34,236 bases of DNA from Candidatus Woesearchaeota archaeon. GTDB lineage: Archaea > Nanobdellota > Nanobdellia > Pacearchaeales > GW2011-AR1. The position numbers and the translations under genes were made by a program. The stretch covers positions 7,254 through 41,489 of the forward strand of contig CAYWQI010000002.1 in NCBI GenBank assembly GCA_964460535.1, given 5' to 3'. A model generated the notes under the pieces. That model was not told where the DNA came from, searched no databases, and saw only the letters and a list, made by a program, of their open reading frames with translations. Shown one piece after another: positions 3,546 to 34,236 of the stretch (the stretch's first letter is position 1; each line of letters opens with the position of its first letter).

Positions 3546-4940
3546 TCAACCTTTCATAACAGCTAGAGGAACAAGACGAACAACTTTTTTTGCAATATCT
3601 AATTTATCTGAAACAAGTGCAACTTCATCAATGTCCTTGTATGCTTGAGGAGCTTCTTCAGAAATACCTCTTGAACTTCCAGCTTCTATTTCAATGTTTT
3701 TTTCTTGAAGTTGTTTTTTGATGTCATTTGAATTTAATGTATGGATTGCTTTTCCTCTTGACATAACTCTTCCAGCTCCGTGTGTTGTTGAACTCCAGGA
3801 TAGTTCTTTAGATTTTTTTCCTCCAATTAACACATAACTTGCAGTTCCCATGCTTCCAGGAATAAGAACTGGTTGTCCTTCAAATGCTCTTGTGGCTCCT
3901 TTTCTATGAACACAAACTTTTTGTTTTTTTCCTTCTACTAGATGTTCTTCTATTTTTGCAATATTATGACAAACATCATAAATCAAATCTGCTTTTGAAT
4001 TTGGAAAGTGTTTTTCTAAAACTTCTCTTGTATAATTCAATATTATTTGTCTATTACAAAATGCAAAATTAACTGCACAATTCATTGCTGAAAGATATTC
4101 TTGTCCTTGTTTTGAATTTAAAGGTGCATAAACTAGTTCTTTGTCTGGAAGGTTTTTTGTTTCAGAAGGAAATTCTTCTTCAAAGTATTTTATATAATCA
4201 CTTGCTATTTGATGTCCTAAACCTCTAGAACCACAATGAATCATTATTAAGATATTGTCTTTATTTATTCCAAAAGTTTTTGCAGTTTGTTCATCAATAA
4301 TCTCATCTACTTTTTGAATTTCTAAAAAATGATTTCCAGCTCCGAGAGTTCCAAGTTGAGGCAATCCTCTTTTCAATGCTCTTTGAGAAATATTGTCTGG
4401 ATTTGCAGGAGAAATTTTTCCATTTTCTTCACAATTTTCTAAATCTTCTTTAACTCCCTTACCTTGTTGTATAGCCCATTCTGCTCCTAATGTTAAAACT
4501 TGTTTTAATTCTTCATAATTTATATTTTTTTCTTGTTTATGTCCTCTACCCACACCAGAAGGAATTGTTCTTTTTAAATCATGAAGAAATTCTTTTCTTT
4601 TTTTTAAAAATTCTTTCACAGAAACATTTGTTGAAATTAAACGAACTCCGCAATTAATATCAAAGCCAATGCCCCCAGGAATTATAATTCCTTTTTCAAT
4701 ATCAAAAGCAGCTACTCCTCCAATTGGGAAGCCATAACCGACATGCATATCACTCATACCAATTGAATGTCTCAATATTCCTGGAAGTGTTGCAACAGAT
4801 GCAATTTGTTTTAAAGAATCTTCTTCAATTGCTTCTAAAAGCTTATCTGAAAAAAATATCCTTCCAGGAACTTTCATCTTTCCTATTTTAGGCAATTCAT
4901 ATACATTCTCTTTTATTTTTTTGAGTTTTTCTTTATACAT
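3546..4940 (-). CDS. rtcB: RNA-splicing ligase RtcB
   Basis: 464 aa with contiguous RtcB motifs GFDINCGVR, GAGNHFLE, HCGSRGLGH, HRKGAT and HGAGR. There is no intein-sized insertion. The stop codon is TGA. Confidence 0.95.
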   Translation of the reverse strand: MYKEKLKKIKENVYELPKIGKMKVPGRIFFSDKLLEAIEEDSLKQIASVATLPGILRHSIGMSDMHVGYGFPIGGVAAFDIEKGIIIPGGIGFDINCGVRLISTNVSVKEFLKKRKEFLHDLKRTIPSGVGRGHKQEKNINYEELKQVLTLGAEWAIQQGKGVKEDLENCEENGKISPANPDNISQRALKRGLPQLGTLGAGNHFLEIQKVDEIIDEQTAKTFGINKDNILIMIHCGSRGLGHQIASDYIKYFEEEFPSETKNLPDKELVYAPLNSKQGQEYLSAMNCAVNFAFCNRQIILNYTREVLEKHFPNSKADLIYDVCHNIAKIEEHLVEGKKQKVCVHRKGATRAFEGQPVLIPGSMGTASYVLIGGKKSKELSWSSTTHGAGRVMSRGKAIHTLNSNDIKKQLQEKNIEIEAGSSRGISEEAPQAYKDIDEVALVSDKLDIAKKVVRLVPLAVMKG

Positions 4941-5806
4941 TTTATTATTTCTAATGAAAGTAATTTGGCATTAATTAATCTTTCTATTTCTTCTTTTTTA
5001 TTTATATTTAACTCATAATAAATATTTCCCAACCCATTTACCCTTTTATATAATAGGCAATTAATATTATAAAAATGTTTTAAATATCTTGAAAGTTTTA
5101 AAAGATTTAATTTTTCTTTTGAAAAAATTCTTATATACTTTTTACTTCTTAATCTACATTTATCCCTCATTAATTTCTTAATGAAACTTTTTAACAAGTG
5201 TTCTTTTTTTGGAAAATCCCAAAGATAAATAACATAATCTCCAATAGCTTGTTCTAATTTTTCCCTCTTTTTTGGATGTAAAAATCCAATTTCTTTTCTA
5301 AATTTTATTAAATTGTTTTTTCCAAAAATATATATTCTAAACATCCTTCTTTTTTTATTTTGTTTCTTAATTGTTTTTATACCTAATTGATTAAGAGATG
5401 ATATGATCTGATTTATTCCTTGTTCATTTATTGAATCTAATCCAATATGCCTATTTTGGTGGGTCTTGATAAAAACCCATCCATCACAATCAAAAAAAGA
5501 TTTTAACCAAATTTTAGTTAGTTTTTTATTTAGTTTTGGCATTTTCCACTCTTTTGAGCTACAAGAACCAAATTTTTTTATTAATTTTTCATGAATTTCT
5601 TTAGAGTTTTTTCGACATCTTTCCTTTTCAGTTATCTTTGGCTTAACACCAAAATATTTAAAAAATTTATCTTGAAAATCCATTAATAAAGTTTTATCTG
5701 TATTCCTTAAACCAATTACATAATTTTTCCATTTTTTTGGATTAGTAACATAACCATCGGCACAAAGATAGGCATGAATTGAAGAGAGATTTTCATCAAA
5801 TTTCAT
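4913..5806 (-). CDS. Free-standing double-motif LAGLIDADG homing endonuclease-like protein
   Basis: Two LAGLIDADG motifs (IHAYLCADGYV and LKSFFDCDGWV) plus a basic C-terminal extension of about 110 aa. Its 3' end overlaps the rtcB start by 28 nt in another frame. Confidence 0.75.
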   Translation of the reverse strand: MKFDENLSSIHAYLCADGYVTNPKKWKNYVIGLRNTDKTLLMDFQDKFFKYFGVKPKITEKERCRKNSKEIHEKLIKKFGSCSSKEWKMPKLNKKLTKIWLKSFFDCDGWVFIKTHQNRHIGLDSINEQGINQIISSLNQLGIKTIKKQNKKRRMFRIYIFGKNNLIKFRKEIGFLHPKKREKLEQAIGDYVIYLWDFPKKEHLLKSFIKKLMRDKCRLRSKKYIRIFSKEKLNLLKLSRYLKHFYNINCLLYKRVNGLGNIYYELNINKKEEIERLINAKLLSLEIIKCIKKNSKK

Positions 5807-5842: not shown

Positions 5843-5886
5843 ATTATCTGGCATTTTTTATTTCTTTCATTTTAGATTATTAGATA
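5843..5886 (+). repeat. Possible internally deleted MITE relic (two terminus-like motifs only)
   Basis: ATTATCTGGCA and GATTATTAGATA resemble the left and right family termini but lie only about 20 nt apart. Confidence 0.2.
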
Positions 5887-6415: not shown

Positions 6416-6450
6416 AAATAAAGAGAAGAATTAGAGTTTTTAAATTTTGT

Positions 6451-6661
6451 TAGGATTGTAACGCAAGTCAAAGTCTAAACAATCCACTGAAGTGGGATTA
6501 ATAGTAAAAATTTTAGGATTTGTATATAGCAGAATATAAGAATATCTATCAATAGGAGCAATAAAGGCACGATATACCTGAGAATCCCAAAAGACGTTAA
6601 TTTAAATTCCTTAAATTTGCAAGGCAGAAAATTCTTTTATTAAATAAAGATTATTAGATAC
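6451..6661 (+). mobile_element. MITE-like element, copy B
   Basis: Left end TAGGATTGTAACGC, core GATTAATAGTAAAAA...AAAGGCAC...GTTAATTTAA, right end GATTATTAGATAC. No clear target-site duplication. Confidence 0.6.
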
Positions 6662-8728: not shown

Positions 8729-8729
8729 T

Positions 8730-9002
8730 TTATTTATGATTAATTGCACAATTTTGTTTAATTGAATTAATTTCTTTGATAGTTTCATTTTTAAAATATT
8801 TTAATTCTTTTACATCATTTGAAACACTATCTAATTTATGAATTTGCCAACCTAAAATATATGCTCCAGCATAAAGAGGAGAATATTCTAACCATAATGA
8901 AGTATTAATTATTCCAAGAGTTTTTAATAAAAGCCAAACAAGAATAAATGCCAGGGCAATCCATGCAAGAATATCCCATATATTAATTTTTTTCATTTTC
9001 AC
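8730..9002 (-). CDS. Small two-helix membrane protein, first gene of the HAD-RuBisCO transcription unit
   Basis: 90 aa with two hydrophobic helices and GAGGTGA upstream of the ATG. It abuts the HAD gene start. Confidence 0.5.
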   Translation of the reverse strand: MKMKKINIWDILAWIALAFILVWLLLKTLGIINTSLWLEYSPLYAGAYILGWQIHKLDSVSNDVKELKYFKNETIKEINSIKQNCAINHK

Positions 9003-9048
9003 CTCTTAATTATTAGTATTTTTTGGTTTTTAATTGTTTTGTTTAAAT

Positions 9049-9286
9049 GGAACCTGCAACACTTGAAGTCCTTCTTAATGATTTTCTTGTTTCTAGATTT
9101 AATAGATAATAAGATATTTTAATTAATATATTCTGAGGTTTTCTTGGATATCTGTGCTTTTGTATTTTTTTAGTATTGATAAATATCTCTACAAATTGTT
9201 AGATTTAAATTATGAAAGTTTTTACTATTAATCTTTTTTCAAGGAAGATATTTGGTTTTATTTTTATAGTCAGGATTATCAGATAC
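9049..9286 (-). mobile_element. MITE-like element, copy C
   Basis: Ends are GGAACCTGCAACAC and GATTATCAGATAC. The interior is collinear with copy H (TTTTAATTAAT...GTGCTTTT...AAAGTTTTTACTATTAATC). Flanking 8-mers GTTTAAAT and TTTTAAAT match 7/8. Confidence 0.75.
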
Positions 9287-10665: not shown

Positions 10666-10714
10666 CTTATATAATTCTTAAGAAAAAATAACTTTAAAAA
10701 ACTTTCAATTAACA

Positions 10715-10935
10715 GTATCTTGTAATACTTGGAGTTTTTACTTAATAATTTCCTGATTAAAAGATTTAATAGATTAACTAATGTCTTTAGATTTTTTTAG
10801 ATAAATGTGTCTTTGTATTTTTCTATTCTTAAGAAATATTTTTTTAACTTGTTATGTTTAGTCTTTAAAGTTTTTTGTTAATGTTAAGTAGATAATGTTA
10901 AGCAAACTTCATAACTTAATCTAAAGGTTGCTTGG
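10715..10935 (-). mobile_element. MITE-like element, copy C2 (right end degenerate)
   Basis: Left end GTATCTTGTAATACTTGGAGTTTTT...AATAATTTCCTG is collinear with copy H through AAAGTTTTTTGTTAATG. The right terminus is not recognisable. Confidence 0.5.
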
Positions 10936-11063
10936 GCAATTTTAAATTTTCCTATGATATCTTTTTTTATTAAACCACTTTCTCTACTATTCTATTTTTC
11001 TATTAATTAAATATTTAAATTTACTAATTAAATCTATTTTGTAGTGGGTGTTGCAAGATACAA

Positions 11064-11639
11064 TTAACAAACAGTTGTTGTCAATGCACCTACAGAAGTA
11101 ATATCTAGTCTCATATAATGTGTTTCTGTTCCAAGACCTTCTTTTGTTGCTTCTACTTTTAATCTTATTGTTGTAGAATCAACTTTTTGAGGTGGTTTAA
11201 TAGTTATGAAATTAACAATGTTTTCTCCAGGAGAAATTGAAACTCCTTGAACTTCATCTTCAATAATCCAACTTTCTATTTGTTCTTCAGAAGGATTTCC
11301 TTCAAGTTTTTTTATTTCTGTTACTTTAAAATCATATTTTACATTTTCATTTGAGATAATTATACATCCAAGAGTTTTTGAATTTCCATCTGCTCCGATT
11401 TTTTGCATTTTCTCTTCTCCAACACATTTAACTTCGTATTCTTGGCTTCCAAATAAACTAGTTATTTCTCCTTTAACTGAATCTGTTATATCATCTGAAA
11501 TTGCAATACCAGAACACATTATGTTTCTTACAAAAATTAATCCAAGAATCAAAACACTAACAAGAAGAACAATAGTTACAATTGTTCCCATTGACATTTC
11601 CATTGCTGCTTTTTTGTTTTGGATTTTCATTTTATGCAA
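11064..11639 (-). CDS. Putative type IV pilin-like / class III signal peptide protein
   Basis: The N-terminus KKAAMEMSMGTIVTIVLLVSVLILGLIF is a basic stretch, small residues, then a hydrophobic helix, followed by a probably beta-rich soluble domain. Confidence 0.4.
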   Translation of the reverse strand: MHKMKIQNKKAAMEMSMGTIVTIVLLVSVLILGLIFVRNIMCSGIAISDDITDSVKGEITSLFGSQEYEVKCVGEEKMQKIGADGNSKTLGCIIISNENVKYDFKVTEIKKLEGNPSEEQIESWIIEDEVQGVSISPGENIVNFITIKPPQKVDSTTIRLKVEATKEGLGTETHYMRLDITSVGALTTTVC

Positions 11640-11987: not shown

Positions 11988-12614
11988 ATGTTAAATGAGA
12001 ATATTGCAGAACTTGTTGGCATATTAATTGGTGATGGATATATCTATAGAAAAAATAATAAATATCAAATAGGTTTTGTAGGAAATCCTATTACAGATAA
12101 AGAACTTTTTTTTAGAATCCAGAAGATATTATTAGAAGAGTTTAATAAAGAATCTAAATTAACCTTTAGAGAAAGAGGGCTAAGGTTTGTTATTAATTCA
12201 AAAGAAATTAGTAATTTTCTTGTCAATGGATTAAGAATTCCTTATGGAGAGGATAAATGTGAAAAAGTTATTATTCCAAAAGTTTTTATGAATGACTGGA
12301 AATTGTCCAGAAAAGTTTTAAGAGGAATTATGGATACTGATGGAACTGTTTTTGTTTCAAAAAAACCAGGTATAGAAAAATATCCTACCATGGAAATAAC
12401 AACTGTAAGTCAAAAATTAGCCATACAAATTAAGAAAATTTTAGATGAACAAGGATTCAGAGTAGGGAATATAAGAAAATCTCTTTCAAAAATGAATAAA
12501 AGATTTGCATATAGGGTTCCTCTTTATGGAAAAAATAATCTTAAAAAATGGTTAAAAGAAATTGGATTTTCCAATATTTACAAAAAAAACCGTGCCCAAT
12601 CTTATATCCAGTAA
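11988..12614 (+). CDS. Free-standing double-motif LAGLIDADG homing endonuclease-like protein
   Basis: Motifs LVGILIGDGYI and LRGIMDTDGTV. It is not embedded in any recognisable intron or intein and ends 65 nt upstream of the intron-containing tRNA-Phe. Confidence 0.75.
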   Translation: MLNENIAELVGILIGDGYIYRKNNKYQIGFVGNPITDKELFFRIQKILLEEFNKESKLTFRERGLRFVINSKEISNFLVNGLRIPYGEDKCEKVIIPKVFMNDWKLSRKVLRGIMDTDGTVFVSKKPGIEKYPTMEITTVSQKLAIQIKKILDEQGFRVGNIRKSLSKMNKRFAYRVPLYGKNNLKKWLKEIGFSNIYKKNRAQSYIQ

Positions 12615-12679: not shown

Positions 12680-12787
12680 GGGGCCCTAGCTCAGCGGGAG
12701 AGCACATGTTTGTTTTAGTCTTATATGGATTAAAGCAATGTGAAACTGAAGATCATGGTGTCCCGGGTTCGACTCCCGGGGGCCCCA
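12680..12787 (+). tRNA. tRNA-Phe(GAA) with a 36-nt intron (12709-12744) in the 5' strand of the anticodon stem
   Basis: Acceptor GGGGCCC/GGGCCCC plus discriminator A. D arm GCTC-AGCGGGA-GAGC, T arm CCGGG-TTCGACT-CCCGG, variable GTGTC. Anticodon loop CTGAAGA (GAA at 12748-12750) is closed by CATG(A)/TCATG only after removing 12709-12744. Confidence 0.85.
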
Positions 12788-12850
12788 TTTAAGAGTTCTT
12801 ATTTCCTCAAATTCTAAAGAACTCTTTCATCGCTCCCGCGATGTTGAAAT

Positions 12851-12941
12851 AGACTCAAACAGTATGTCTTTGGTTTGACCGAGTTAATCTAATTTATTAT
12901 ATTCTGAAAGTAAATGTAAAAAATAAAATTAGGTTAAGGAG
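12851..12941 (+). repeat. 91-bp direct repeat, copy 1
   Basis: AGACTCAAACAGTATGTCTTTGGTTTGACCGAGTTAATCTAATTTATTATATTCTGAAAGTAAATGTAAAAAATAAAATTAGGTTAAGGAG. It differs from copy 2 at 3 positions, all in the first 16 nt. Confidence 0.9.
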
Positions 12942-13005
12942 ACAGGGGGCCCATTTTGAGATGAAGCAAAAATTCCATCTCAATTTTGTTCTCGGGTTTT
13001 GGATT

Positions 13006-13096
13006 AGATTCAAACTATATGTCTTTGGTTTGACCGAGTTAATCTAATTTATTATATTCTGAAAGTAAATGTAAAAAATAAAATTAGGTTAAGGAG
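13006..13096 (+). repeat. 91-bp direct repeat, copy 2
   Basis: Near-identical to 12851-12941 with a 155-bp period. It is followed by CCCGGGGGCCATTT, a copy of the tRNA-Phe 3' end. Confidence 0.9.
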
Positions 13097-14668: not shown

Positions 14669-14868
14669 GTATCTGGTATCACTAAATACAAAAATAAATA
14701 AAATACATTCCTTGAAAAAAAATTAATAGTAAAAACTTTTCGAGTTTAGATATAGGGAGTTCTAGAAATATCTTTTTATAGTAAAAAAATTCAAAGGCAC
14801 AGATATCCAAGAAAAATTCAGATTACATTAATAATTTAGATCTTTGAATATTAAAAAATAAAAAAAAT
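14669..14868 (+). mobile_element. MITE-like element, copy D (right arm degenerate)
   Basis: Left end GTATCTGGTATCAC, core AATTAATAGTAAAAACTTTT...AAAGGCACAGATATCCAAGAAAAATTCAGATTACATTAATAA. The right terminus is not recognisable and runs up to the stop codon of the KaiC-like gene. Confidence 0.55.
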
Positions 14869-15897
14869 TTAAGTTAAGTTAAAGTTTTTCTTCTTTTTAT
14901 CAAGAATCTTATTCGGATTTATCATAACTCCTTTTTTGTTAACTATTTGAAGATCAACTATTTTTTTAGTGAAATTTGAACCTCTCATTTTCAATACTTC
15001 AATTGCTGAACCTCTTTGACCATTGTCATAAATCACATTATAAATAACAATAATACCATCTGATAAGAATGAAACTGCTTCACCTTGTTCTGTAAAAGTT
15101 GTTCCTACATGACTTGGAGATGAAACTTCTCTAATTAAGAAATTAGTGATTTTATTTCTTTCTAAGTATCTAAATAATTGTTCCATATATATTCTAAAAC
15201 GACTTTGTTGTCCTGAGAAAGCTGAAGCAATACTTGTTAGTGAATCAATAACTACAAAATCAGGATTATAGTCTTGTGGAAAAAACACAGGGTCAACTTC
15301 AATTAATAATTCTTTTTTAGCAGCACTTAATAAAGCTTCAATAGATCTTGAAACATCAATTGCATCAAATCTTTTTATTCTTAATAATCCTTTTTTGATA
15401 TATTCTCTTGGTTTCCATCCAAAGTTTTCCATGTGGGATATAAGATTTTCTTCAGGTTCTTCAAAACTCATGTATAAACCTTTTTTACCTTTTTTACATA
15501 ATTCATTTAATGTGGCAAGACAAAAAATAGTTTTACCACTTCCAGGACCTCCCTCTACTAGAACAGCAGCTCCATCAGGTATTCCAGAATTTTTATCAAA
15601 AAGTGCGTCAAATCCTTTCATTCCTGTTTGGATATATCTTGGGCTTTCTTTTTTTATATTTTTATTTGGAGATTTTTTAGATTTAATATCTTTAACTTTG
15701 CCTTCTGTTTTCAAGTCTTTTCTTAATCTTTTTACAACATTATCTAATTTTTTCTTTTCTTCTTTAGTGGGTTTCTTATTCTTTGATTTTAAGGAATTCT
15801 TTTTAGAAGAATTATTTTTTTTATTAGAATCTTTTTTATTTTTCTTAGATATATCTTTAGATTTCATACTTTTTTTCACACTCTTTTTTTTCACCAT
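14869..15897 (-). CDS. KaiC/RadA-like RecA-superfamily ATPase with an N-terminal Lys-rich tail of about 85 aa
   Basis: Walker A GGPGSGKT, Walker B-like FVVIDS, and a KaiC-family C-terminal pattern (AIEVLKMRGS). The first ~85 residues are low-complexity K/S/N-rich. Confidence 0.75.
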   Translation of the reverse strand: MVKKKSVKKSMKSKDISKKNKKDSNKKNNSSKKNSLKSKNKKPTKEEKKKLDNVVKRLRKDLKTEGKVKDIKSKKSPNKNIKKESPRYIQTGMKGFDALFDKNSGIPDGAAVLVEGGPGSGKTIFCLATLNELCKKGKKGLYMSFEEPEENLISHMENFGWKPREYIKKGLLRIKRFDAIDVSRSIEALLSAAKKELLIEVDPVFFPQDYNPDFVVIDSLTSIASAFSGQQSRFRIYMEQLFRYLERNKITNFLIREVSSPSHVGTTFTEQGEAVSFLSDGIIVIYNVIYDNGQRGSAIEVLKMRGSNFTKKIVDLQIVNKKGVMINPNKILDKKKKNFNLT

Positions 15898-15940: not shown

Positions 15941-16168
15941 GTATCTGGTAATCCTAACTATAAAAATAAAATTAAATATATTTCTTGAAAAAAGATTAAT
16001 AGTAAATACTTTTAATAGGAGTGTAAAGGCTTGTAAAATATAATCAATGTTTAATCAATAATTTCTTAGTTCTAGTAATTCAAAAAAATCCAGATTGTAT
16101 TAATTAAAACTTCTCAATTTTGTAGCCTAAGTAGATTATTAATAAAAAGATAATTTTGTTTCCAGGCT
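15941..16168 (+). mobile_element. MITE-like element, copy E (subfamily with GTGTAAAGGCTTGTAAAATATA core)
   Basis: Left end GTATCTGGTAATCC, then GATTAATAGTAAATAC, TTAATTAAAAC and right end TTTCCAGGCTC. It lies 44 bp upstream of the KaiC-like start codon. Confidence 0.65.
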
Positions 16169-16338
16169 CTATTAAAGTTATTGATTTATTTTTAATAATC
16201 CTTTAGTAAACTTTGAAATTTTAATTAATAATTTTCTGTTTATATAAATTTCAAGATAATATTGATTTCTTGATTTGTAAAATAATTAATTTTTTAATAA
16301 ACCAAAAGATTTAATAATCTTAATAACTCAAAAACTTT

Positions 16339-16826: not shown

Positions 16827-17283
16827 GTATTTGGTAATTCAAATTAGGAAAATAAAATTTAAATTTTATTCTTTGATGAGAGATTAACAACAAGGGCTTT
16901 TGATATGGGTGTAAAGATTTGCAAAATATATTTAATGTGTATAAAGAATATGTCTCTGGTAATATTGGCTACAAGAACAATTTTCAAACACCCTCTCTGA
17001 AAAAAGATTAATTGTAAAAACTTTCAGAGTTTAGGTCTAAGGAGTTATAAAGATATCTTCTAATAGTAAAAAATTCAAAAGCACAATTATTTAAGAAAAC
17101 TCAGAGATATGTTAATTAAAATTTTTTATTACTTATCACCTCTATAAAACAGAGAAATTATTGAAAAAGAAATATCTTGGTTACTAGGTACAGGAATATC
17201 TTGGTGCTAATAATTTTAAAAAATCTAGATTACATTAATTAAAATTTCTTAAATCTTTTTAATAATCAAAAGAAATATAATTA
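16827..17283 (+). mobile_element. MITE-like element, copy F (E-type subfamily), interrupted by copy G
   Basis: Left end GTATTTGGTAATTC. The two halves, 16827-16951 and 17192 to about 17283, are collinear with copy E. The right terminus cannot be resolved because it runs into the RNase P RNA 3' end. Confidence 0.55.
16952..17191 (+). mobile_element. MITE-like element, copy G, nested inside copy F
   Basis: Ends GTCTCTGGTAAT and GGTTACTAGGTAC, with a full core. Flanking 8-mers AAGAATAT (16944-16951) and AGGAATAT (17192-17199) match 7/8. Copy E shows the uninterrupted target site. Confidence 0.75.
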
Positions 17284-21217: not shown

Positions 21218-22169
21218 AGAAGCAATACAATCATAAACAAATGAGGCTTTTAGTAGTTGTCTGCTGAATACGTCGGACGAATCCTTCGTACTTACACAGC
21301 AACTCTATCAACGTTGTCTTTTACAACGGCCTTTGTTGTCTCGTTTTGCGGAGAGCTTCGAGCTTAGATGCATTCAGCTCTTATCTCTACAATGCGTAGC
21401 TATGCAGCCTGCTATTAACAACTGCTCACCAGAGGCATCCGAGTCCTGTTCCTCTCGTACTAAAAACTCGTTCCACTCAAACAACAACACATCTAGTAGA
21501 TATCATACAAACTGTCTCGCGACGTTCTTAACCCAGCTAACGATCCCTTTTAATGTGTGAACTCCAACACCCTTGCACGCTTCTGCACGCGCAGGTTAGG
21601 GAGAGCCGACAGCGAAATACCAAACCGCCCCGTCAATACGGACTATCGGGGGCGACCAGCTTATTATCCTTGGGGTAACTTTTCTATCAGACACGGCACC
21701 TATTAAAAGTGCACGTGGGTTCACTAGGCCACTCTTACGAGCCTGCATTTCTTGCTTTTCAAAATACAGTCAGACAAACTTTTGCCCTTACACTCAACTC
21801 CAGATTTCCAAGCTGGATGAGTTTGTCTTTGGGTCCTATCGATATCTTTTCGACAGGGCGCCGCCCCAGCCAAACTGCCCGCCTGCTGCTGTCTTCATAA
21901 AGAATAAGAAAATTTAAACAAAACAGGTGGTATTACAAGATCGCTCCGTCTTAACCGAAATTAAGACATCGACGCTCCCACCTATACTAGGCATTTCGTT
22001 TAAACCCTCAACAACAAGTTGCAGTAAAGTTCCACAAGGTCTTTGCTTCCCACTAGATGTCCGTGGCCCTTGCACCACGTAGTATTTTCAGAAGGCACCA
22101 ATTAGGGACAGTGACAACCTCGTTAAACCATTCATGCAAGTCGCAATTCATACGACAAGGCATTAAGCT

Positions 22170-23064
22170 CATAATGTTAATTAGAATCTTTTTCAATGAT
22201 GATTCAATTCTTTACATCGCTGTAAAGTTCGGACTATATCTTCTACAATTTTAAATTATTTTGTAGTCGAGCATGTAGTCTCTGAGGATTCTGGAATTAA
22301 TTAAAAAAAGATTTTGAAAATAATCTATCTAATGAATCATTTATTGATATCTGAATAAACTCTTTAGGAGGAATTGCGTAAAATTCCTCTCCAGATTTAC
22401 TTGATGTGTGTTTTAATTTTCCAGATTCAAATACTTTTGAAATTGGAATCCACAACCAAGTTTTATAATCAGAATCTTCATTTGATAGAACATACCAAAT
22501 ATTTAAATTAAATTTTCTTTGTATTGAAGAATATTTTTTTGTTTCTTTAGCATCAATAGGATATGTTTTATATTCCTTATTTATCTTTTTGTATTTTGTG
22601 TCTACAAAAATAAAACCTAGATTAGGAATTAAAATCAAAAAATCAGGTCTTTTTCCACTGAAATATTTTTTAAATGCAATAGATAATGTTTGAGTATCTT
22701 GTTGCAAATAAAGATAAGGAATATTGTGTTTATTTAACCATTCCTTAAATTTGATTTCAGTTTCATTTCCCTTTCTTTTTTCTTCTTTTCCTATTTCCAT
22801 ATTCTTCCATTTTGAGATATTTATTTAAAACTTTTTATTCCAGCCTTTCCTGCTGATTGTCTGCACTCATCTAATTTTTACGCGAACTAACTATTTAAAT
22901 TTTAGTTATCGTTGTATAGTGAGATACTCAGATATTCCAGCATATAGCTCAATTTTCTCTATTAGTTTAACTTTTTAATTCAACAAATTCAACTGTTTAT
23001 TTACTATAACACCTAGAGCGTTTTTATCATTTTTCGACGATAAAAACGTAAGGCAGCTTTGTTC
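22170..23064 (-). mobile_element. Group I intron in 23S rRNA, about E. coli position 1931/1932, just 3' of helix 69
   Basis: The 5' exon ends UAAGGU. Intron nt 6-16, AAGCUGCCUUA, pairs with the 5' exon (P1, U.G at the splice site) and with the 3' exon AGCUU (P10). The intron ends in G. Core elements CAGAGACUACAUGCUCGAC (R-like) and GAAGAUAUAGUCCGAAC (S-like) lie 3' of the ORF. Confidence 0.8.
22297..22800 (-). CDS. Intron-encoded protein with PD-(D/E)xK nuclease-like motifs (candidate homing endonuclease)
   Basis: 167-aa ORF on the same strand as the rRNA and wholly inside the intron. GKRPDFLILIPNLGFIFVDTKYKK fits PD...(D/E)xK, and the N-terminal E-rich helix resembles Hjc/restriction-fold nucleases. 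There is no LAGLIDADG, GIY-YIG, HNH or His-Cys motif. Confidence 0.55.
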   Translation of the reverse strand: MEIGKEEKRKGNETEIKFKEWLNKHNIPYLYLQQDTQTLSIAFKKYFSGKRPDFLILIPNLGFIFVDTKYKKINKEYKTYPIDAKETKKYSSIQRKFNLNIWYVLSNEDSDYKTWLWIPISKVFESGKLKHTSSKSGEEFYAIPPKEFIQISINDSLDRLFSKSFFN

Positions 23065-24978
23065 ACCTTAAGAGCGTCATAGTTACGCCCGCCGTTTAAT
23101 GGGCCTTAGCTCCCTTGAAAAGGAGTTTTAGACACCACCACTGGGCAGGTCTCGCCAAGTATACACGTCATTTCTGATTAGCACTTGGCTATGTTTTTGG
23201 TAAACAGTCGGGCCGTCCTTGTTACTGAGATCTATTAATGCACTCCTATTTCTAAAAGCACAAAAATAGACACCCCTTAAACCTAAGTTACAGGGCTAAC
23301 TTGCTGAATTCCCTTAATTGGTTTAATCTTTCATGTCTTAGCTTTTTAAGCCAGAGCACCAGTGCTGGTTATGGGTACAGCTAATTAAATCCGTTCAGTA
23401 AATAACTTTTCACTGGCTCTTGGAATCAGCAATTTTGTTCAAAAAATTTATTTATATCTAAGCATTACGCTCCATAAATTTCTTTTTTGAAACACTCTTC
23501 CGAGTGCTTACTTATCCAAAAGCATTATTTACAAAAGATTTAATTAGTTCAGGAATATTAACCTGATGTCCATCATTGTTCTCGATTAAGGAACAACTAA
23601 GGCGCTGACTAACCCTTGGCTAACATATATTGCCAAGGAAACCTTGCTCTTGCGACATTTTGCGTTCTCAGCAAAATCACATCTTACTATTACCAGGATT
23701 CTCATTACTATTCGTTCCATTCCTCCTTTAAGAGAAACTTCTGCACAAATAGTACGCCTGTTTACCAGTTTTCTAAAAATAGAAAACTCTAAAGTATCGG
23801 TATTATGCTTAGCCCCGTCCATTTTCAAGGCCCTAAACCTCAATAGGTGAGCTGTTACGCTTTCTTTAAATGATAGCTGCTTCTGGGCTTACATCCCTAC
23901 TGTCTCAGGTTTAAGACACTCTTCATGACACTTAGCATAAATTTAAGGACCTTAACTTTAGTCTCCCTTGTTCGGGTCTTGGAACAGTATCTTACATACC
24001 GCCCCTTATTCCTGTCTTACGCAGTCAATAGATTCTGAGTTGAAAAAATCTCCGTAAGCATTAGCCCCTGCGAGATTTATTCGTACTTTACACCATTAAC
24101 AAACTAGACAAGACTATGCGTAGGCATATTTCAACAGGAACCAGCCATTGCCGAATTAGATAAGCTTTTCACCCCTATTCACAGATCATCCAAGTGCATG
24201 TCCACAACAACGGTTCAGGCCTCCATCCCTCTTTCGAAAGACTTCACCTTGTCCATGAATAGATCATCCGGCTTCAGGTCTTTACCATATGACTAACGCC
24301 TTTTCAGACTTGCTTTCGCTTTGGTTACCCTTTAAAGGTTAGCCTCGCCATATAGAAAAACTCCCTGGCCCGTTTTTCGAAACGTACGTTACAATCCCTT
24401 AGGACAGTAACTAACTGTAACTGTTAGATTTCAAATCTTTTCACACTCTATTAAGAGTACTTTTCAGCTTTCCCTCGCGGTACTAGTGCTCTATCGGACT
24501 TTGATTTTATTTAGGGTTACCTGTTAATCCAGGCATATTCAGACACCCAATCCAGGATGCCCTACTCTTTTTGAAAATCCTTCCTCATTCTAAATCTACG
24601 GGACTATCACCCTCTATAGTGTTCCATTCCAGGAAACTTTGAATCAAATGATAGGAATTCATTTTCACCACATCTCTATTCTTATTACTAAGAAAGATTC
24701 AGCTTGCCCTAATCCCTTTTCGCTCTCTGCTAATAAGGGAATAATTATTTATTTTCTTTTCCTACTGGTACTAAGATGTTTCAATTCCCAGTGTATCTTA
24801 TCTGACAAATGCCAGACTATTCAGAAATCTCTGGATCAATATCTGCATGCGATTCCCCAGAGCTTTTCGCAGCTTGCCACGTCCTTCATCAGAATCAAAA
24901 CCAAGCTATCCATCTAACAGCATAAAATATGTTTGCTGATTGTCTTTTTACTTTTTCTAAAAGAAAAAGTGCCAACTA

Positions 24979-25183: not shown

Positions 25184-25256
25184 GGGCCCGTTGTCCAATG
25201 GTTTAAGATACCTCCCTTGCACGGAGGAGATCCGTGTTCGATTCACGGCGGGTCCA
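25184..25256 (+). tRNA. tRNA-Ala(UGC), encoded antisense to the flanking rRNA genes
   Basis: Acceptor GGGCCCG/CGGGTCC with a G3:U70 pair. Anticodon arm CCTCC-CTTGCAC-GGAGG (TGC at 25218-25220), T arm CCGTG-TTCGATT-CACGG, discriminator A. It is followed by a T7 run. The cloverleaf forms only on the + strand. Confidence 0.85.
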
Positions 25257-25390: not shown

Positions 25391-26836
25391 AAGGAGGTAA
25401 TCCATCTGCAGGTTCCCCTACAGATACCTTGTGACGACTTAACCTACCTTGTCTACCCATGGCTCTCCTTCGAAAAGTTTCACCATAAATAAACTCGGTT
25501 GGTTTGACGGGCAGTGTGTGCAAGAGACCGTGACATATTCACCGTTTGTTGATAACGAACGATTACTACCGATTCCAACGTCATGAGGCTGAGTTGCAAA
25601 CCTCAATCTGAACTAAGACAGACTTTAAGGGATTAGCTTCTCCTTTCAGAGTTGCATCTCGTTGTATCTGCCATTGACGCGCGCGTGTTGCCTAGGGGAT
25701 TCGGGCTGTACTCACCTAACGTAGCCCACACTTTCATCCCAGTTACCCGGGCAATCTGTATATAGTACACATAGTAAATATACATGTGGGTCTTGCCTGT
25801 TACCTGATTTAACAGGTCATCTCACGACACAGGCTGACGTCGGCCATGCTGCTCCTCTCAGCGTGTCAGGTAAGCCCTTTAGACTGACCTTCATTCTGCT
25901 GTCGCTCCTGGTGAGGTTCACGGTGTAGAATCTAATTGAACCGCACGCGTCACCGGTTGTAGTGTCTCCCCGCCAATTCCTTTAAGTTTCAGCCTTGCGA
26001 CTATACTTCCCAGGTAGTACACTCTTCGCCTTCGCTACAGCACTAATACCTCTCGAAGAGGTACTAATGTTTAGTGTACAGTGTTTACTGCTAGGACTAC
26101 AGGGGTATCTAATCCCTTTTGCGCCCCTAGCCTTCATCCCTTACTGTCAGAACTGTTCTCGTAAGGTGCCTTCGCTATTGTTAGTCCGTTTGGGATTAAC
26201 ACATTTTACCGCTACTCCAAACGTACTCCTTACGTCTCCCAGTCTCTAGCTAAATAGTATTTCCTGCACGCCCTATCTTTAAGAGATAAGATTTCACAGG
26301 AAACTTAGATAGCAAGCTACGGATGTTTTAGACCCAATAAAAATGGCTGCGACTTGGACCGCGAGTATTACCGCGGCGGCTGGCACTCGTCTTACCCAGT
26401 CCTTATTCGCCAAACTTTTTACATTTGGCAAAAGTTTTCCAATTGGAAAACACTCTGACTCACTCTATCACACTTTAGTGCATTGTAAAAGATGCCTAGC
26501 TGCTGCACCCCGTAGGGCTGGGAATAGTGTCTCAGATTCCCTCTCAGGGCTTCTCCGCTAAGAGCCCTTACAGATCTATGGCTTGGTGGGCTATTACCCC
26601 GCCAACAACCTAATCCGCCGCAGCCCCATCCTTAAGCTCGAATTTGAGAGATAAGTCTTTCCAGGGCATATCTCTTATCAGGTATTAGCCTCAGTTTCCC
26701 GAGGTTATCCCTGACTTAAGGGTAGGTTAGCTACGTGTTACTGAGCAGTTCGCTTTCCTCTGATAAATCAAAGAAAAAACTTGCATGCCTAAGCGCAAGT
26801 CAGAGAGCCGCAGCCGCCAGCAGGATCAACTGGATT
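25391..26836 (-). rRNA. rrs: 16S rRNA
   Basis: The reverse complement begins ATCCAGTTGATCCTGCTGGCGG and ends GGTATCTGTAGGGGAACCTGCAGATGGATTACCTCCTT. It contains GTGCCAGCCGCCGCGGTAATAC (archaeal form) and the 1492 region AAGTCGTCACAAGGTA. Confidence 0.95.
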
Positions 26837-29532: not shown

Positions 29533-29810
29533 TTTTTATTACTTATTATTCTTATTTTAAATAACTTTCCTATTTATATAAATTTAAAAGTAACTATAAA
29601 ATATCAAAGAAACTCCAAAATCTACTTTGTGAGATTTTTCTATAAAACAAAATTGATAATGTAAAAGATTCTCTACAACTTGTGCGATTATATTACAATA
29701 TTCTTTATCTATACTACTAAATTCCAGAACTCTAAATGAAATTTTTTCCATTAATTTCTCCAAAGGCGACTGCCTTAAACATAGCTCCTTGTTGCAAAAT
29801 TGGGCGAAGC

Positions 29811-30047
29811 GTATCTGGTAACACCTGGAGTTTTGTTCAATAATTTCCTGTTTCACAGATGTAATAAATAATAAGAAATTTTAATTAATATCTTCTGAAG
29901 TTCTTTTGGATAATTGTGCCTTTAAATCCATTATTATTAAAAAATATTTTTATAACTTGCTATATTTAAGCCCTAAAAGTTTTTACTATTAATCTCGCGT
30001 CAGCGACTGTATTTGGTTTTATTTTTATAGTTAGTGTTACCAGGTAC
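29811..30047 (-). mobile_element. MITE-like element, copy H (best-preserved reference copy)
   Basis: Terminal inverted repeats GTATCTGGTAACAC and GTGTTACCAGGTAC match 13/14 as inverted repeats. The 8-bp direct repeat GGCGAAGC is perfect on both flanks (29803-29810 and 30048-30055). Confidence 0.85.
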
Positions 30048-30090
30048 GGCGAAGCGAATATTATTTAAACTTCTTTTTATTTGTATAATT

Positions 30091-33454: not shown

Positions 33455-33696
33455 CTTTAATGATTCTCAGAATTGAGTTTCTGAGGTACTAACACCCCTT
33501 ATTGATTAAAGATTAATCTATTTTAAAAAACTATCGGAAAGCGTGCGTCCAATGTCATTAAGTTAGTAAGAACCATAATGAAAAATTAACTACAAATTTA
33601 TCTAAATAAAAATATTCTTATCTGTTTTCTGCATTAAATTTTTTAAACATCAATAAAAAATCTTATTTCAAAAATTATTTAATAAAACTATTTTTT

Positions 33697-34236
33697 TCAA
33701 ATCGCCCTCTTTCGGTGAATATGAAATTTTCGACGATCCCATTTTCTTTTTCTTGGATTTTTCCTATTTGGGCGAATAGGAATTGGTTCAATTTTAAACA
33801 AGATTTTTAATTGCTCATAAACATCTTTTTTATTAGAAAAAAATATTTTTATAACTCTATCCTTCATTAAACCTAGAGAAAGATTTCTATTAACTTTGAA
33901 TTTATAATCTTTTTTCGATTTTTTCTTTTTCAAATCGCTTTTTATATCATTAATTATTATGGCTTGCAGATTAATAATAAATATACTTGCATAAAAATCT
34001 TGTTTTATCGATAAGGAAGATAAACCAGTAAAATCTTCTAGTCTTAAATTATTTTTTAGATGATCATAATTAACTTCAATACCCCAACGTAATTGATACA
34101 ACTCATTTAAATCTTCTATTGTATATTTTTTATCGTCAAGAAGAGAAGTTGCCAAAACCTCAACTTCTCCATTATTTAAAATTAATTTTACTAACCTAAT
34201 TTTAAAAGATTTAAAATTTATTCCCAGATCTTCTAA
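33697..34236 (-). CDS. IS4-family DDE transposase, C-terminal part (gene runs off the window edge)
   Basis: YQLRWGIEVNYDHLK fits the IS4 Y-(2)-R-(3)-E-(6)-K signature. The frame stays open upstream of the track's TTG start, to position 34236. Confidence 0.6.
   Translation of the reverse strand, partial: LEDLGINFKSFKIRLVKLILNNGEVEVLATSLLDDKKYTIEDLNELYQLRWGIEVNYDHLKNNLRLEDFTGLSSLSIKQDFYASIFIINLQAIIINDIKSDLKKKKSKKDYKFKVNRNLSLGLMKDRVIKIFFSNKKDVYEQLKILFKIEPIPIRPNRKNPRKRKWDRRKFHIHRKRAI

Follow-up and report, generated by a model that had tools for sequence, protein, structure and literature searches.

A stretch of 34,236 nucleotides (termed here the window) from an assembly assigned to a Candidatus Woesearchaeota archaeon (GCA_964460535.1, contig CAYWQI010000002.1, positions 7,254 to 41,489 of the forward strand) harbors a dense family of short repeats that very probably are transposable elements of the miniature inverted-repeat kind (MITEs), that is, non-autonomous DNA transposons, within a DPANN genome of the Pacearchaeota/Woesearchaeota type. 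The repeats carry terminal inverted repeats, are flanked by target duplications of a constant 8 bp, include one copy that is inserted into another, and are absent from the orthologous spacers of related genomes. A MITE-like family with no coding capacity, 14-bp terminal repeats and 8-bp duplications had been proposed from inspection of the window (the original prediction), and this proposal is supported by the ends, the duplications, the nesting, the empty spacers and the lack of an RNA fold.

To delineate the family, the claimed copies were made into a profile, with which nhmmer was run on the window. This yields eight strong matches (E = 1e-31 to 1e-55) as well as two weaker, collinear pieces (16827-16943 and 17192-17278) that lie beside the match at 16952-17191, and thus eight full copies plus one that is interrupted by another copy. 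Together with a repeat scan, the search locates the family where it had been reported, and the combined element length of 2154 bp, or 6.3% of the window, agrees with the share of roughly 6% estimated before. Copies range from 211 to 347 bp (mostly about 220-240 bp, with one 347-bp variant); their pairwise identities are 46-75%, the longest exact match between any two of them is 23 nt, and their identity to the family consensus falls from 88% (copy 29811; copies are designated by their first position) to 66% (copies 6445 and 15941). As had been claimed, all copies contain the same blocks in the same order, and none has coding capacity: stop-free stretches reach at most 35-54 aa per copy and none is common to different copies, so that the family lacks a transposase gene. 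Two details of the prediction need correction. For the supposed relics (1696-1830 and 5843-5886) nhmmer gives only non-significant matches, with E > 1, and copy 10715, which had been thought to end at about 10935, extends to 11061 according to a scan for the end motif. The copies are:

29811-30047, + strand: 237 bp, the best preserved copy, with left end GTATCTGGTAACAC and right end GTGTTACCAGGTAC, about 45 bp upstream of the start of a LigD_N gene; target duplication GGCGAAGC (8/8) at 29803-29810 and 30048-30055.
10715-11061, + strand: the long variant, 347 bp, with ends GTATCTTGTAATAC and GTATCTTGCAACAC, 49 bp upstream of the cysS start; perfect target duplication AATTAACA at 10707-10714 and 11062-11069, which takes in the stop codon of a gene encoding 191 aa.
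9049-9286, + strand: 238 bp, separated by 2 bp from the stop codon of cysS; duplication GTTTAAAT / TTTTAAAT (7/8), overlapping this codon.
1902-2120, - strand: 219 bp, 43 bp upstream of the start of the archease gene; duplication GAAACCCT / GAAATCCT (7/8).
16952-17191, - strand: 240 bp, within an older copy; duplication ATATTCCT / ATATTCTT (7/8).
16827-17283, - strand: the older, outer copy, now in two pieces (16827-16951 and 17200-17283) because 16952-17191 inserted into it; right end GTATTTGGTAAT retained, left end decayed; separated by 6 bp from the RNase P RNA 3' end.
6445-6661, - strand: an old copy in the spacer that separates the RuBisCO stop from the NUDIX start; right end and duplication gone.
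14669-14884, - strand: a copy without its left 38 nt, retaining right end GTATCTGGTATC; at its left, it overlaps the final codons and the stop of a KaiC-like gene (14869-15897).
15941-16169, - strand: an old copy 43 bp upstream of the start of the KaiC-like gene; right end GTATCTGGTAAT retained, duplication not recognizable.
16206-16260, + strand: a weak, possible tenth copy, namely a left-end fragment with 82% identity over 38 nt to copy 10715 (blastn E = 3.6e-4; nhmmer E = 0.45).

The ends of the family consist of inverted repeats of 12-14 bp, GTAYCTGGTAACAC. The end motif GTAYCTGGTAAC, with up to two mismatches allowed, occurs 15 times in the window versus 1.65 times expected (an approximately 9-fold enrichment), and 11 of these 15 matches fall exactly at the ends of copies. 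The two ends of a copy agree as inverted repeats at 13 of 14 positions in copy 29811 and at 12 of 14 in copy 10715, and have decayed in older copies. When boundaries are fixed by the terminal repeats, an 8-bp duplication is found around five of the nine copies (8/8, 8/8, 7/8, 7/8 and 7/8 positions identical). Random placements within the window match at seven or more of eight positions with probability 0.0019, which for five of nine copies corresponds to P of about 3e-12. Hence, the earlier description of a best copy with 13/14 termini and a perfect 8-bp repeat is accurate, as is that of three further copies with 7/8 duplications (9049, 16952 and 1902); tabulated over the family, ends and duplications both lie far above chance, and the termini are consistent. 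The state of a duplication follows the identity of the copy to the consensus, duplications being preserved only in the copies nearest to it. No target consensus was seen at the insertion sites.

Evidence of mobility comes from within the family itself. When residues 16952-17199, which comprise one copy and one 8-bp duplication, are excised in silico, the two weak matches on either side merge into one collinear match that covers profile positions 46-226 with E = 5e-12. This indicates that one copy inserted into another, with the usual 8-bp duplication.

Mobility is likewise suggested by comparison with three syntenic relatives, for which orthology was established by blastp: L103 (cysS 74% identical), L105 (72%) and L106 (71%, GCA_018653175.1). 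The gene order DUF4190, 191-aa gene, cysS, HAD, RuBisCO, NUDIX is common to the window and all three. The spacer between the 191-aa gene and cysS measures 398 bp in the window and 55, 38 and 40 bp in the relatives; subtracting the 347-bp element and one duplication leaves 43 bp, versus 38-55 bp in the relatives. Similarly, the spacer between cysS and HAD is 500 bp in the window and 42 bp in L103, and the RuBisCO and NUDIX genes, 276 bp apart in the window, overlap in L106. The family profile finds no copy in 33 kb of L103, L105 and L106. Thus the search for empty sites in relatives, called for by the prediction, revealed orthologous spacers that are short and without the element in all three. 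In the window, the spacer that runs from the HAD hydrolase gene to copy 9049 contains about 260-320 bp (8729-9048) that do not resemble the MITE; a gene caller predicts there an open reading frame (ORF) of 88 aa without a Pfam match, the equivalent L103 spacer being the 42-bp one. A reverse-transcriptase (RVT_1) gene occupies positions 1-563 of the L106 sequence, about 9.4 kb from cysS.

These features suggest the following mechanism. The elements would be short, non-coding derivatives of a cut-or-copy DNA transposon, mobilized in trans by a transposase that is encoded elsewhere and that presumably recognizes the terminal inverted repeats of about 14 bp (GTAYCTGGTAACAC). Insertion would occur at a target cut with an 8-bp stagger, the repair of which would generate the 8-bp flanking duplication, and the enzyme would be a DDE-type transposase that makes duplications of this length.

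Several observations weigh against the MITE interpretation. The comparison with relatives concerns spacer lengths rather than exact empty sites, because the nearest cysS is 74% identical. One terminus and the duplication are absent from copies 6445, 14669 and 15941 and from the outer nested copy. The terminal repeats are conserved to the same degree as the element on average, unlike an internal block described below, and this is atypical of a purely selfish element. No copy outside this genome was found in scans of genome, metagenome and viral contigs, and an autonomous partner with matching ends was found neither in the window nor, apart from chance matches, in the collection scans. These scans consisted of a search of genome contigs with the 18-mer AAAGTTTTTACTATTAAT, a pattern that is short for an AT-rich motif and that gave at least 96 chance matches in AT-rich bacteria, none of them the element according to nhmmer; a search with the composite pattern GTGCYTTT-N(50-80)-AAAGTWTTTACWATTAAT, which gave one chance match (L102) in metagenome contigs and none in viral contigs; and a search of viral contigs with a pattern spanning both terminal repeats, which gave nothing. 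A blastn search of plasmid and phage collections with the best copy likewise returned no match.

A candidate partner had nevertheless been named, namely an insertion sequence (IS) at the right-hand edge that carries the sole transposase gene in the window:

33550-34236, - strand: IS4-family IS, cut by the window edge, with end CAATGTCATTAAGTTAG at 33550 and the C-terminal part of its transposase at 33697-34236.

The classification as an IS4-like transposase gene is upheld by matches of the edge ORF to Pfam DDE_Tnp_1 and to the NCBIfam IS4 family NF033592. The tentative suggestion that it is the autonomous partner, which was prompted by a loosely similar terminus-like motif nearby (GGTACTAACAC at about 33485), is refuted. 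The IS has the ends CAATGTCATTAAGTTA and TAACTTAATGACATTG in four independent contexts, namely the window and the relatives L002, L003 and L004 (both ends in L002, one each in L003 and L004); in the window, a 17-mer of the IS end lies at 33550, and beyond the IS end the sequence is unrelated in every context. With the boundary of the IS at 33550, the motif at 33485 falls beyond it. The ends of the IS bear no resemblance to GTAYCTGGTAACAC, and the MITE profile finds no match in L002-L004, so that it is hardly credible that this element mobilizes the repeats. Judging from L002, the IS is about 1.57 kb long, with terminal repeats of 16-17 bp. Its transposase is divided between two ORFs in two of its relatives (128+284 aa and 162+271 aa). 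Database relatives of the transposase are named Woesearchaeota and occur on contigs of 0.7-13 kb, those at least 51% identical being on contigs of less than 2.4 kb; such short contigs are typical of repeats that break assemblies.

Two further rival explanations are disfavored. Under one of them, the repeats would be paralogs encoding a structured non-coding RNA, or else a non-mobile intergenic regulatory repeat, instead of transposons. This would account for the restriction of the copies to intergenic DNA near housekeeping genes and for their conserved internal blocks. However, RNAalifold predicts no consensus pair for all eight copies and a mere 4-bp hairpin once a divergent copy is omitted (leaving seven), Rfam has no match at E up to 1, and the modest fold z-scores of a single copy (-2.2 and -2.05) come mainly from the pairing of the terminal repeats with each other. 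The flanking duplications, the terminal repeats and the nested insertion also count against it. Moreover, the short spacers without a copy in the three relatives imply that the element is not an RNA gene conserved at orthologous positions, an outcome that would have refuted the prediction. This explanation is therefore very improbable.

The other explanation, namely that the copies are assembly artefacts of a single collapsed or mis-joined repeat, derives what plausibility it has from the metagenomic origin of the source contig, repeats being what breaks metagenome assemblies; its likelihood is close to nil. The copies differ from each other by 25-54%, and each has unique flanks. Furthermore, in an independent assembly (the Logan contigs of run SRR11308339), four contigs agree with the window over flank-element junctions, at 0-1 mismatch; L108, which is one of them, passes unbroken through copy 6445-6661. 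The junctions and the divergence of the copies thus dispose of the concern about artefacts that accompanied the prediction.

The independent assembly also bears on the age and activity of the MITE family. Logan assemblies are built on 31-mers. Contigs L107 and L001 reach 30 and 29 nt, respectively, into copy 29811 from its two ends and stop there; L101 and L108 break within copy 1902, and there is a further break within copy 9049. Contig ends correspond to window positions 87, 1981, 2034, 9143, 27043, 29840, 30019 and 34181; they fall in copies 1902, 9049 and 29811, in the IS, and beside a 31-mer that is repeated at 24/85, and thereby provide a map of sequence repeated over at least 31 nt in the sample. 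Because contigs break inside these three copies and copies in the window share at most 23 nt, the likeliest cause is closer siblings of them elsewhere in the sample. To judge from these breaks, there probably exists elsewhere in the genome a younger subfamily that resembles copy 29811. The family as a whole would appear, from comparison of its sequences, to be old and mostly decayed, since copies are 46-75% identical and duplications are left only in those near the consensus.

The copies occupy a restricted set of positions relative to genes. Four end 43-49 bp upstream of a start codon, and TATA-like boxes (such as CTTTATAAA and ATTTAAAAA) are retained between the element and the gene. Two lie 2 bp from a stop codon, which in each case is within the duplicated 8 bp; one covers the last codons of the KaiC-like gene, and another is the copy 6 bp from the RNase P RNA 3' end. 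Orientation relative to neighboring genes is unbiased, with three to four copies sense and three antisense to incoming transcription. This pattern fits the purging by selection of harmful insertions from a compact genome: the copies that remain would be those at harmless sites, that is, just upstream of TATA boxes or right after stop codons, and in two cases the stop codon would have been regenerated by the 8-bp duplication. Two roles for the element were considered and rejected: that of a promoter for neighboring genes, because these have their own TATA boxes outside the element, and that of a terminator formed by the hairpin and T-run described next, because orientation to incoming transcription is mixed.

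Within the element one segment stands out, which in the best copy is:

29976-30007, + strand: internal module in which the 19-nt block AAAGTTTTTACTATTAATC precedes a hairpin of 4 bp (TCGC-GTCA-GCGA) that leads into a T-rich run.

The block, with up to one mismatch, occurs seven times in the window versus 0.18 times expected, always inside copies, and it has the fewest mismatches of any 19-column stretch of the alignment (permutation p = 0.0004). Across seven sequences, 92.9% of the hairpin cells are paired, and three of the four pairs have changed on both sides; none of 500 shuffles reaches the observed values, and a slide control peaks sharply at 0, the true register. Either of two interpretations may apply: the block and hairpin are a candidate subterminal binding site that is under selection on the replicating lineages, or they are a co-opted module.

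Co-option is compatible with the MITE interpretation and proposes that part of the element (the block, the covarying hairpin and the T-rich run) has become a functional module; this could be a protein-binding site, or else a small transcript's core and 3' end, dispersed among intergenic regions. In its favor are the exceptional conservation of the block in comparison with terminal repeats that are merely average, its confinement to copies, the covariation, and the fact that RNAalifold independently finds the hairpin, as the sole predicted pairing and exclusively on the strand that allows G-U pairs. On the other hand, the hairpin was first noticed by eye, has four base pairs and a consensus energy of -0.57 kcal/mol, and is known from seven sequences; orientation to genes is unbiased and the genes next to a copy possess TATA boxes of their own beyond the element; and constraint on replicating master copies (for instance, on a subterminal transposase-binding site) could instead explain the conservation. 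On balance, co-option is possible but unlikely. Somewhat less likely still is the broader proposition that a MITE family has spread a conserved module through a reduced DPANN genome, where it was kept after insertion, and that the copies thus serve as portable regulatory or small-RNA units.

Structurally, these are textbook MITEs. The repeats have no match in Rfam, in plasmid and phage collections or in the scanned sequence collections, and the current understanding of MITEs is unchanged by them. Archaeal MITEs have been known since the description of SM1-SM4 in Sulfolobus solfataricus (Redder et al. 2001, cited in PMC10969869). As far as published descriptions permit comparison, the present repeats resemble SM1-SM4 and the catalogued prokaryotic MITEs (PMC11602168) in being short, non-coding, multicopy and mostly intergenic, in having terminal inverted repeats and a duplication of fixed length, and, presumably, in depending on a transposase that acts in trans. 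They differ from the SM elements, which are described as having identified parent IS elements, in that none was found for the present family. A 2024 census of 8220 archaeal genomes found DPANN archaea to be the densest in MITEs, with 146 per Mb in Altiarchaeum and 105 per Mb in a Woesearchaea genome (PMC11602168). The characterization of the window as unusually dense for a small archaeal genome is therefore tempered by the prior listing of DPANN as the MITE-richest archaea. Nine copies in 34 kb would amount to about 260 per Mb genome-wide, which exceeds the published maxima but describes a single window and cannot be extrapolated; if the local density did hold throughout, this would be the most MITE-dense archaeal genome reported.

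Among IS families, IS6/IS26 offers the closest parallel that was compared: its members have 14-bp terminal inverted repeats, generate an 8-bp duplication and are common in archaea, and the two known MITEs of the family are 227 and 336 bp long (PMC7986276). The present repeats share with these the 8-bp duplication, terminal repeats of about 14 bp, similar sizes (about 220-240 and 347 bp) and a CTGxT core at repeat positions 5-9. Unlike the IS6/IS26 signature, which has GG tips followed by cTGTt and caaa, the consensus GTATCTGGTAACAC has GT tips (with GG in one end only), its core is CTGGT (a 4/5 match), it lacks caaa, and AACAC closes the repeat. Nor was an IS6-type transposase encountered in the window. 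The IS1595, ISL3, IS256, ISH6 and IS66 families of the ISfinder tables also make 8-bp duplications. Because of this, and because the GG tips and the cTGTt...caaa signature are not matched, the resemblance to IS6/IS26 is a lead rather than an assignment.

The internal module has a possible analog in bacteria. Correia elements, unlike the present repeats, have a TA duplication and long inverted repeats. Like the enterobacterial ERIC-type MITEs, the Correia elements of Neisseria are dense in a small genome, intergenic and near the starts and ends of genes, and such elements contain internal promoters, sites for integration host factor (IHF) and RNase sites (PMC10969869). These internal functional motifs may be analogous to the block and hairpin described here. 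The promoter and processing functions of Correia elements, however, have been shown experimentally, whereas the present module is known from sequence alone; and, unlike the hosts of Correia and ERIC elements, the present host is an archaeon with promoters based on the TATA box and B recognition element (TATA/BRE).

DPANN archaea have very small, gene-dense genomes, for which a strong pressure toward DNA loss is assumed. The window illustrates that such a compact genome tolerates waves of selfish DNA, here 6% of 34 kb and only a few bases away from cysS, RNase P RNA and RuBisCO, and the sites of the copies map the positions that are tolerated, namely those immediately following stop codons and those just upstream of TATA boxes. 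The repeats also explain the fragmented assemblies of this organism. From a practical perspective, they can serve as a lineage-specific marker and as a means of tracking down the transposase.

Regarding the host, the window has a G+C content of 29% and is archaeal; it includes a 16S-23S rRNA region, RNase P RNA, an intron-containing tRNA, and genes for a form III-type RuBisCO, cysS, RtcB, archease and a P-type ATPase. The closest cysS products in a collection of 5.8 billion proteins are at most 74% identical, and those that are named come from Pacearchaeota, Nanoarchaeota or an 'archaeon', which indicates that the host is a DPANN archaeon without a close sequenced relative.

Other features of the window are noted here in passing. 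The intron-containing tRNA (12680-12787) is detected by Rfam and missed by ARAGORN. Downstream of it lie two 98-nt direct repeats, 95% identical (12844-12941 and 12999-13096), each with a promoter-like TTTATTATATTCTGAAAG, which resembles CTTTATATTCTGGAAG upstream of the tRNA. After each repeat comes a partial copy of the 3' acceptor end of this tRNA (GGGGGCCCA and CCCGGGGGCCA). Such features may be small promoter-driven RNAs or else scars left by integration into the tRNA gene; Rfam searched at E up to 1 finds nothing over them.

Archaeal rRNA operons normally have tRNA-Ala in operon orientation. In the window, tRNA-Ala(TGC) (25184-25256, + strand) lies between the 16S (25392-26836, - strand) and 23S (21230-24939, - strand) genes on the opposite strand, with its own TTTATAAA box about 30 nt upstream. 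The match to the large-subunit (LSU) rRNA model at 21230-24939 spans 3710 nt versus 2987 nt for the model, implying about 720 nt of insertions or introns, and a 167-aa ORF inside it (22297-22800, - strand) has no Pfam match. Finally, there are two free-standing ORFs resembling LAGLIDADG_3 homing endonucleases: one of them is directly upstream of, and overlaps, RtcB, and the other is upstream of the intron-containing tRNA. These ORFs (4913-5806 and 11988-12614) have in common a 48-nt inverted repeat that is 81% complementary.

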